The translations under genes were made by a program, and so were the position numbers. The notes below the pieces were generated by a model. It saw only the letters and a list, made by a program, of their open reading frames with translations. It ran no database searches and was not told the DNA's origin. Shown piece by piece: positions 25,946 to 26,536 of a stretch of 64,000 nt of DNA. Each line of letters starts with the position of its first letter. Position 1 is the first letter of the stretch. The DNA comes from a virus, in the IMG/VR virus record IMGVR_UViG_3300023235_000014; one strand, written 5' to 3'.

Positions 25946-26536
25946 ATGGTAACTACAAAAGCAAGGCTACAGAAACTAGCAGGCATCATAAACGAGTCTA
26001 CAAACGAGTCACTTCAAGAGATGCTTAATGAGCAAGCTCGTGTGTTTGACGATTCAGCAAAAGAACTCATCTTTGAAGTTCCAGCCTGGCTTAGGGCCAT
26101 TCACCTTTGGTTCCATTCGGCTCACCACGTAACACGTGGACCAAACTTTGCTGGCGATCACGTGGAGCTGTATGGCAGGATCTACGAGGAAGTCCAGGCA
26201 GAAGTTGATGGTGTCATCGAGAAGGCTGTTGGTGTCACTGGAGGGCAAGACATGGCTTGTCCAATGTGCCTAACCAAGCACGCAATGAAAATCATGGAAC
26301 GATACCACTCACCAGTTGAACTAAAATCTTCTGACATCGCCAAAGAAGGCCTCCGTATGATTGAGGACTATTTGATTTTTCTTAACAGAACATTCAAAGA
26401 GTTGGACGCCAAGGGTATGCTTTCTCTTGGAATGAACGACCAGTGGGCTGCCTCAGCTAACACCCATGAAACCTATGCCTACCTTCTCGGACAAAGAGTG
26501 AGAGCCCCGAACGACACTGTTCAAAAGATGATGTAG
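25946..26536 (+). CDS. Dps-like (ferritin-like) protein carrying a type-B N-terminal propeptide
   Basis: 'HLWFHSAHHVTRGPNFAGDHVELYGRIYEEVQAEVDGVIEK' matches Dps 'FHWNVKGPNF..LH...EEQYEEL..AIDEIAER'. N-terminal 'MVTTKARLQKLAGIINE'. Confidence 0.65.
   Translation: MVTTKARLQKLAGIINESTNESLQEMLNEQARVFDDSAKELIFEVPAWLRAIHLWFHSAHHVTRGPNFAGDHVELYGRIYEEVQAEVDGVIEKAVGVTGGQDMACPMCLTKHAMKIMERYHSPVELKSSDIAKEGLRMIEDYLIFLNRTFKELDAKGMLSLGMNDQWAASANTHETYAYLLGQRVRAPNDTVQKMM

Follow-up and report, generated by a model that had tools for sequence, protein, structure and literature searches.

A Dps-like mini-ferritin of a huge T4-like phage bears a leader that matches a scaffold-position tail and suggests targeting to the phage head

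We analysed a 64,000-nucleotide stretch of the IMG/VR virus record IMGVR_UViG_3300023235_000014 (hereafter the window), which belongs to a metagenomic contig of 284,850 bp (ENA ERZ27315719 k141_17111), and focus here on the open reading frame (ORF) at positions 25946..26536. Judged from its sequence and predicted structure, this ORF is a divergent, phage-specific member of the Dps family of mini-ferritins with an intact predicted inter-subunit ferroxidase site. It begins with a short leader that recurs in otherwise unrelated proteins of the same phage and that matches the C-terminal tail of the protein encoded in the scaffold position, and the Dps-like protein probably enters the phage head as the T4 internal proteins do. 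The window encodes a myovirus tail sheath (two paralogs), tail proteins and a T4 gp23-type major capsid protein, and the source virus is a huge T4-like phage. Among 50,697 phage records, megablast with a 24-kb portion of the window detected no nucleotide-level match; with tblastn, the capsid protein matched 2,505 T4-like phage records, the nearest cultured ones by this protein being Flavobacterium phage vB_FspM_immuto (160 kb) and Microcystis phage Mel-JY01.

The Dps-type core and its leader

A sequence-only reading of this DNA had described the ORF as a Dps-like ferritin behind a leader of the virion-targeting type, and all strings that it quoted are present in the translation (MVTTKARLQKLAGIINE at residues 1-17, HLWFH at 53-57, GPNF at 65-68 and DHVELYGRIYEE at 71-82). 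The assignment to the Dps-like mini-ferritins was borne out by sequence matches in the PDB, by structural comparison and by the alignment of invariant ligands. A phmmer search of the PDB retrieved Staphylococcus aureus Dps (2d5k, E=8.5e-5), and a profile built from 55 homologs matched 41 PDB sequences at E<=1 (strongest from E=1.4e-3), of which the strongest and nearly all others were Dps-family proteins or Dps-fusion chimeras. Matches in PHROGs were to phrog_3636 (1.7e-5) and phrog_858, both phage families of the Dps type. An AlphaFold2 monomer model built on the 55-sequence alignment (predicted local distance difference test score, pLDDT, 84.9) is a four-helix bundle with a BC helix (A, 36-62; B, 71-98; short BC, 101-117; C, 128-155; D, 161-185) behind residues 1-30 of low confidence, and the best Foldseek matches to this model in the PDB were Dps in 50 of 50 cases, with target-normalised template-modelling (TM) scores of 0.57-0.82. 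A sub-threshold Pfam match of the ORF to the encapsulin family Linocin_M18 (E=0.078) was rejected as noise.

When the profile was aligned to Listeria Dps (1qgh), H60, H72, D88 and E92 fell on H31, H43, D58 and E62, the established inter-subunit ferroxidase ligands of that protein. Conservation of the ferroxidase ligands was the point on which the sequence-only reading had made its proposal depend, and all four residues are invariant over the 55 homologs, among which the mean column identity is 37%. The ORF is thus very likely to encode a Dps-family protein of the ferroxidase type. It shares with the bacterial proteins (Listeria innocua 1qgh, S. aureus 2d5k) the four-helix bundle, the BC helix and His/His/Asp/Glu ligands at the same positions; unlike them, it has ~15-20% identity to the known family, which is under the detection limit of Pfam, a His in place of the conserved Trp beside the first ligand, an acidic composition without a Lys-rich DNA-binding tail, relatives on phage contigs and an N-terminal leader of the targeting type. 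Residues 18-196 have an isoelectric point (pI) of 5.45, with 18 Lys and Arg against 26 Asp and Glu; no Lys/Arg-rich tail of the kind seen in the DNA-binding Dps of E. coli is present at either the N- or the C-terminus, and residues 18-35 are acidic. The suggestion in the sequence-only reading that the protein binds DNA consequently finds no support in the sequence.

The segment in front of this core proved to be a true, separable leader, common to unrelated proteins, matched by the C-terminal tail of the scaffold-position protein and ending in an [IL]-x-E site of the T4 type. Among orthologs of the Dps-like protein the leader and the core are conserved and the linker between them is hypervariable in both sequence and length (0 to ~90 residues). 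The leader consensus, M-x(4-6)-R-[WLF]-[QK]-x-L-A-G-[IL]-[IL]-x-E, heads at least nine otherwise unrelated ORFs of the window. Counted with the regular expression [KRQ][WLFYM][KRQE].[LIM][AS]G[LIVM], the motif occurs 10 times in the called proteins of the window compared with 0.05 times in residue shuffles (maximum 2), and 11 times in its six-frame translation compared with 0.17 times in codon shuffles. Eight copies stand at residue 6-8 (ORFs starting at 25576, 25946, 35808, 42869, 43587, 43970, 49986 on the minus strand, and 21693, the last after a one-base shift), one stands at residue 72 after an internal Met (34535), and the remaining two, in ORFs 11931..14135 and 20936..21685, are 11-12 residues away from the C-terminus. 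Because Arg, Leu, Ala and Gly are encoded by different synonymous codons from copy to copy, selection acts on the peptide; a DNA-level repeat as the source of the leader was rejected on the same grounds.

Further, the motif is kept at the peptide level across phages whose Dps-like cores are 46-81% identical, and in distant cultured phages. Relatives carry 3-7 tagged ORFs per 20 kb and the cultured phage immuto carries two, gp42 and gp187, whose common part is a 24-residue leader only; in the smaller phages whose loci were anchored on the protease gene, N-terminal copies are rare (3 in 908 kb). The tag of gp42 and gp187 reads MKKQILSEQF[KR]RMQ.LAGIITE, with a Ser after the expected cut. A literature search on the motif strings returned no relevant mention.

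Correspondence between the leader and the head genes

The motif also closes the acidic protein encoded directly upstream of the capsid gene, which we call the scaffold-position protein. This protein is of low complexity with helical ends and is homologous to immuto35A_203 (E=7.8e-9); its counterpart in related huge-phage loci (L003, L005 and L006/L007) likewise has the motif at its very end, as do the scaffold-position proteins of cultured immuto (immuto35A_203) and Mel-JY01 (...RMKKLAGIVK at the stop). The two cultured genes are annotated as 'DNA polymerase phi-like protein' (immuto35A_203, L011 7725..8966) and 'hypothetical' (Mel-JY01, L017 18797..19897), but their products have the look of scaffold proteins. 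On a wider scale, 40 of 80 IMG/VR loci around gp21-type protease genes carry the motif at a C-terminus (41 copies), where it forms the last 8-13 residues of an ORF of 275-515 residues (reading-frame length) that in most cases lies 1-4 kb downstream of the protease. As read by eye, 22 of 25 N-terminal copies continue with [ILV][ILV]-x-E after the motif, and no C-terminal copy does; in the listed C-terminal tails, [ILV]-x-E stands ~10 residues upstream of the motif. In either arrangement, a protease cutting after [IL]-x-E would free a motif peptide of ~17-20 residues.

The N-terminus of the window's capsid protein aligns with the T4 gp23 propeptide, and its invariant E60 (L-K-E/T, with the slash at the cut) falls on T4 E65; in T4, gp21 removes a gp23 propeptide of 65 residues that ends at E65 (PMC5694885, PMC9958956). 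Both immuto and Mel-JY01 encode a gp21-type protease together with a gp23-type capsid protein, and the immuto protease is a genuine homolog of gp21 that has matches in 2,629 T4-like records. The Dps-like gene keeps its place near these head genes: its orthologs lie on contigs of 200-508 kb with local synteny like that of the window, in which an acidic ORF of 743-766 residues is followed by a gp23-type capsid gene and, 6-8 kb downstream, by the Dps-like gene. In the window, the gene sits in a tightly packed row on one strand (25160..25558, 25576..25938, 25946..26536 and 26540..26911).

A second tagged ORF, at 35808..36233, encodes a protein whose model (pLDDT 84.8) matches only proteins of the ADP-ribosyltransferase (ART) fold, among them Tpt1/KptA, pertussis toxin, Rhs ART toxins, diphtheria toxin and PARPs, at E ~1e-3 and with modest TM-scores; a His, a Tyr and a Glu are invariant in its family. 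T4 Alt, likewise an ART-fold enzyme, is annotated in its database record as 'carried in the phage particle'; an N-terminal propeptide is cut off from it by gp21 (PMC5694885). The co-tagged ART-fold protein thus resembles the packaged T4 Alt and supports the head-targeting reading of the leader. Members of the 35808..36233 family mostly lack the tag, and some have mini-leaders of 9-12 residues, such as MRxFMxIVE, that resemble the T4 capsid targeting sequence. Pfam searches with the tagged ORFs other than the Dps-like one gave no significant family, the sole hint being PARP at E=0.069, which structure prediction then followed up.

Table 1. Coordinates of the Dps-like gene, the head genes and the other motif-bearing ORFs in the window (aa, amino acids)
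Feature	Position	Strand	Remarks
Dps-like mini-ferritin ORF, ATG start, 196 aa (leader, linker and four-helix-bundle core)	25946..26536	+	
N-terminal leader, 17 aa, MVTTKARLQKLAGIINE (aa 1-17)	25946..25996	+	pLDDT ~53; short helix at residues 3-11
RLQKLAGI, binding-type motif inside leader	25964..25987	+	
I-N-E (residues 15-17), putative prohead-protease site	25988..25996	+	
Acidic linker, aa 18-35	25997..26050	+	low pLDDT; alignment of orthologs
Dps core, aa 36-185	26051..26500	+	
Predicted ferroxidase ligand codons	H60 26123..26125; H72 26159..26161; D88 26207..26209; E92 26219..26221	+	
Acidic scaffold-position protein, 734 aa, pI 4.2, 25% Asp+Glu	11931..14135	+	directly upstream of capsid gene
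C-terminal motif of scaffold-position protein, ...RWQVLAGIKKGE then stop	14097..14132	+	
T4 gp23-type major capsid protein with N-terminal propeptide	14189..16111	+	phrog_138, E=1e-73
120-aa ORF adjoining the Dps-like gene upstream, leader MTTKKRWQRLAGILTE	25576..25938	+	
141-aa ORF, leader MTGFTSKRFKELAGLLTE, ART-fold core	35808..36233	+	invariant H34, Y67, E102
Three consecutive leader-bearing ORFs (42869..43582, 43587..43967, 43970..44506)	42869..44506	+	
89-aa ORF, leader MTRFSKERWRRLAGLLNE	49717..49986	-	
100-aa reading from internal Met of ORF 34343..34837, starting with leader MKEFSSKRFKELAGLITE	34535..34837	+	
249-aa ORF, motif at C-terminus (...RKRWQQLAGIEAI then stop, 21650..21682)	20936..21685	+	
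Small leader gene, MNDITK followed by KRLQELAGLISE...	21693..21922	+	only after 1-nucleotide shift in A6 run

Head targeting and its alternatives

We hold the full head-targeting model for the tagged Dps-like protein, which is built on sequence comparison, to be moderately probable. According to this model, the tag would consist of a binding module, R-[WLF]-[QK]-x-L-A-G-[IL], copied from the conserved C-terminal tail of the scaffold-position protein of this lineage, and an [IL]-x-E module of the kind that T4-type (gp21) prohead proteases cleave. As the prohead assembles, the tag would sit where the scaffold tail does, against the inner surface of the gp23-type shell or on the scaffold core, and the Dps-like protein would thereby be co-assembled into the prohead; if it is a dodecamer, its N-termini would point outward and present up to 12 surface tags for multivalent recruitment. 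The prohead protease would cut after E17 and free an acidic core of ~20 kDa inside the head, the predicted mature protein starting at S18 with the N-terminal peptide STNESLQEMLNEQAR. The freed core would oxidise and sequester Fe2+, consume H2O2 or O2 and limit Fenton damage to the packaged genome, or, if it were packaged as monomers or dimers, could act in the newly infected cell instead.

Head targeting of this kind has a precedent in the T4 capsid targeting sequence (CTS; PMC3012670, PMC5694885, PMC9958956). Like the CTS of T4 IPI-III and Alt, which is removed by gp21, the leader is a short N-terminal peptide of the 10-20-residue class that is common to unrelated proteins of one phage, and it ends in an [IL]-x-E-type protease site (PMC5694885, PMC9958956); as in T4, an ART-fold enzyme is among the putative cargo, and the capsid protein is of the gp23 type with the propeptide cleavage glutamate conserved. 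Unlike the T4 CTS, the tag copies the C-terminal tail of the scaffold-position protein, which suggests a defined binding site, and its putative cargo is a Dps-like protein. The localisation of proteins in the T4 core was still called 'mysterious' in a 2023 review of the T4 head (PMC9958956), and the cargo-tag reading, if true, would give a sequence-defined answer to protein localisation in T4-type prohead cores.

Phage scaffolding proteins have C-terminal coat-binding tails, and the HK97 protease has a C-terminal targeting tail. The motif resembles these as a terminal peptide of an internal assembly protein, strictly conserved here on the scaffold-position protein; in the literature searched, we found no report of a scaffold tail that had been moved to the front of many non-structural proteins to serve as a general cargo tag. 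The sequence-only reading had likened the arrangement to encapsulin with ferritin cargo, and the likeness is reasonable as an analogy: both have a shell of the HK97 fold, cargo of the ferritin superfamily and a short terminal cargo peptide presumed to bind the shell interior, and in this window the motif is found at either protein terminus. Unlike encapsulin, the container would be the head of a tailed phage, with its portal, scaffold and DNA; the peptide motif bears no relation to that of encapsulin cargo, and the tag is apparently removed by a protease.

Phage-borne genes for Dps- and ferritin-like proteins are themselves documented (PMC8008677, PMC6669764), in Lactobacillus phages, in gut 'Gratiaviridae' and in phrog_3636 and phrog_858, and a ferritin-like protein was found by proteomics in particles of phage G (499 kb; PMC12484599). 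These reports propose relief of oxidative stress in the cytoplasm or give no targeting mechanism, and none describes a leader. Against the 50,697 phage records, tblastn of the present ORF had a single match, in an uncultured 485-kb phage whose homolog is leaderless, and the protein therefore forms a separate sub-family. Neither the T4 CTS as a concept nor the presence of Dps genes in phages is new; the elements that appear new are a cargo tag identical to a conserved scaffold tail and a Dps-like cargo.

Several observations weigh against head targeting of the Dps-like protein. An exhaustive profile search collected 1,757 representatives of the family at E<=1e-3, with members on 53 IMG/VR viral contigs, and in 36 of these 53 viral loci the protein has no leader; most family members being leaderless, the core evidently works unpackaged too. 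Leaderless members occur in phage-like marine and other contigs. The leader has no sequence similarity to the T4 CTS (MELITELFDE in Alt and MKTYQEFIAE in the T4 internal proteins). The assignment of the scaffold-position protein rests on position, composition and homology to an immuto gene that is un- or mis-annotated. Queries with T4 gp21 and gp20, the immuto protease and portal, a two-sequence hidden Markov model and the catalytic motif E[LF][DN]HP detected neither a gp21-type protease nor a portal among all ORFs of the window and in the 10 kb on its left side, so the protease specificity is derived from the capsid-protein alignment and from relatives. The T4 late promoter TATAAATA has 0 matches in the window, and co-expression with the head genes therefore lacks promoter support. 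Delivery with the genome, as the sequence-only reading had it, is doubtful: a Dps dodecamer is a cage of ~9 nm, too large for the tail channel, and protection inside the capsid is accordingly at least as likely as delivery to the host. Finally, we infer packaging, cleavage, binding partner, oligomeric state, iron chemistry and fate at ejection alike.

These points leave most room for a reading in which the tag is a peptide of scaffold origin that serves interaction or processing but leads to no stable packaging, and the Dps-like protein works in the infected cytoplasm; recruitment to the prohead or scaffold would then be transient, for timed activation, for destruction by the prohead protease or for action on nascent heads. 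The leaderless majority of the family must act in the cytoplasm, phage Dps is usually read as helping the host to tolerate oxidative stress during infection (PMC8008677), and the packaging of the tagged proteins is what we infer rather than see. We nevertheless consider this reading unlikely: the architecture of tag plus [IL]-x-E mirrors that of the packaged CTS proteins of T4 (PMC5694885, PMC9958956), the co-tagged ART-fold protein resembles packaged Alt, and the motif is the terminal tail of a core or scaffold protein that itself lies within the prohead.

Less probable still, and in our view quite improbable, is the co-option of the Dps fold as a structural internal head protein, a DNA-condensing or core-building component without iron chemistry, in which the conserved residues are kept for folding or for metal-dependent assembly. 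The internal proteins of T4 are abundant, DNA-associated components of the head (PMC3012670), and the family has features that fit such a change of role and weigh against ferroxidase chemistry: it is divergent, because Pfam Ferritin (PF00210) had no match to the ORF even at E<=1, and the Trp beside the first ligand His (W32 in Listeria, W52 in E. coli) is replaced by H61. This position varies among close relatives (H/I/V/T), and distant family members have HW. Against the structural role, the four ferroxidase ligands are invariant over the 55 sequences at 37% mean identity, leaderless members included, and the acidic mature protein would be poorly suited to DNA condensation. That the common N-terminus is a by-product of cassette shuffling, or a translation-initiation or regulatory DNA element without peptide function, is hardly credible: tagged genes are clustered (25576-26536 and 42869-44506) and huge phages are rich in recombining small genes and homing endonucleases, but the codon differences among the copies largely refute it, and the peptide is conserved across phages with 46-81% identical cores and in distant cultured phages and is found at C-termini too.

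Head targeting thus remains our preferred reading, and it can be extended, tentatively and at somewhat less than even chances, to a large clade of aquatic T4-like phages. In such a clade, a scaffold tail of the form R-[WFM]-[QK]-K-L-A-G-[IL] would build the core into the shell, and the huge members would have made of it a general, protease-removable N-terminal cargo tag, so that the capsid serves as an encapsulin-like compartment for an iron-mineralising Dps cage, as an antioxidant or iron store within the capsid, and for effectors such as ADP-ribosyltransferases. Because the tag equals the scaffold tail, which is also present in cultured immuto and Mel-JY01, it offers a concrete binding hypothesis of one peptide and one site, and the motif permits head-internal or injected proteins to be predicted from sequence in uncultured huge phages. 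Should the Dps-like protein truly end up in the capsid, the heads of phages would hold a ferroxidase or iron store of their own, which would matter for how long virions persist in oxic, sunlit waters and for iron bound to viruses, and would be a natural parallel of the encapsulin-ferritin systems; the leader would then also be a possible portable tag for loading foreign proteins into T4-type heads in phage engineering.

Related leaders and neighbouring genes

Other homologs of the Dps-like protein carry a second leader type, MKI[ST]K.QL[RK].[LI]I.EE, which in the window also heads ORFs 10132..10566, 10860..11366 and 49137..49538; a wider pattern, MK[ILV].K.QL..[LIM]I[RK]E.V.E.L.E, is found also at 28038, 34849 and 48388 and at L019 1868..2374. 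The ORFs at 10132 and 10860 with this leader lie just upstream of the scaffold-position gene, and Pfam and PHROGs searches with the ORFs upstream of that gene gave no match. In further leader types, a Cys stands shortly after [IL]-x-E (IKE/QCDLGP, IRE/CPADD and MNE/SCGD, with the slash after the Glu), as seen in homologs P0049, P0074, P0101, P0110 and P0176 and in loci L109, L128 and L135, which suggests a conserved Cys near the mature N-terminus in these types. The small leader gene at 21693..21922 directly follows the motif-ending ORF 20936..21685, and the one-nucleotide shift that it needs could be a sequencing error in the homopolymer, the mark of a pseudogene or a programmed frameshift.

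A candidate promoter motif, CATATTTAC, stands upstream of 10860, 11414, 31355 and 35808 but is not significantly enriched (7 occurrences against 4.6 expected). The sequence C[AT]TATTTAC or CTAATTTAC stands 13-40 nucleotides upstream of four gene starts (motifs at 10820, 11383, 31322 and 35795), which belong to two head-region ORFs, to 31355..31846 (tail-tube-like by eye) and to the tagged ART gene, and may be a late promoter element, but it too lacks significant enrichment (7 against 4.6 expected).

The two tail-sheath paralogs have a GIY-YIG endonuclease between them, and several ORFs that resemble HNH and GIY-YIG homing endonucleases lie dispersed over the structural module (954..8180, 16311..19806, 22109..22882 and 30310..32792 for both observations). 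On the minus strand, 45392..47512 encodes an actin-like protein of the Volactin family (E=7e-59) that is split by an intein with Hint and LAGLIDADG domains, 41012..42028 is a glutamine-synthetase-like phage gene (Gln-synt_C, E=1e-18), and 38184..40919 encodes a 911-residue protein that combines major-vault-protein shoulder with SPFH/Band-7 domains and has a homolog in the related locus L003. A 457-residue protein encoded at 32964..34337 has a sub-threshold ART-PolyVal match (E=5.5e-4) and a GNAT domain and resembles the 'polyvalent' proteins of phages; 'YHGT' cores paralogous to it are found at 24125..25051 and 28038..29234.

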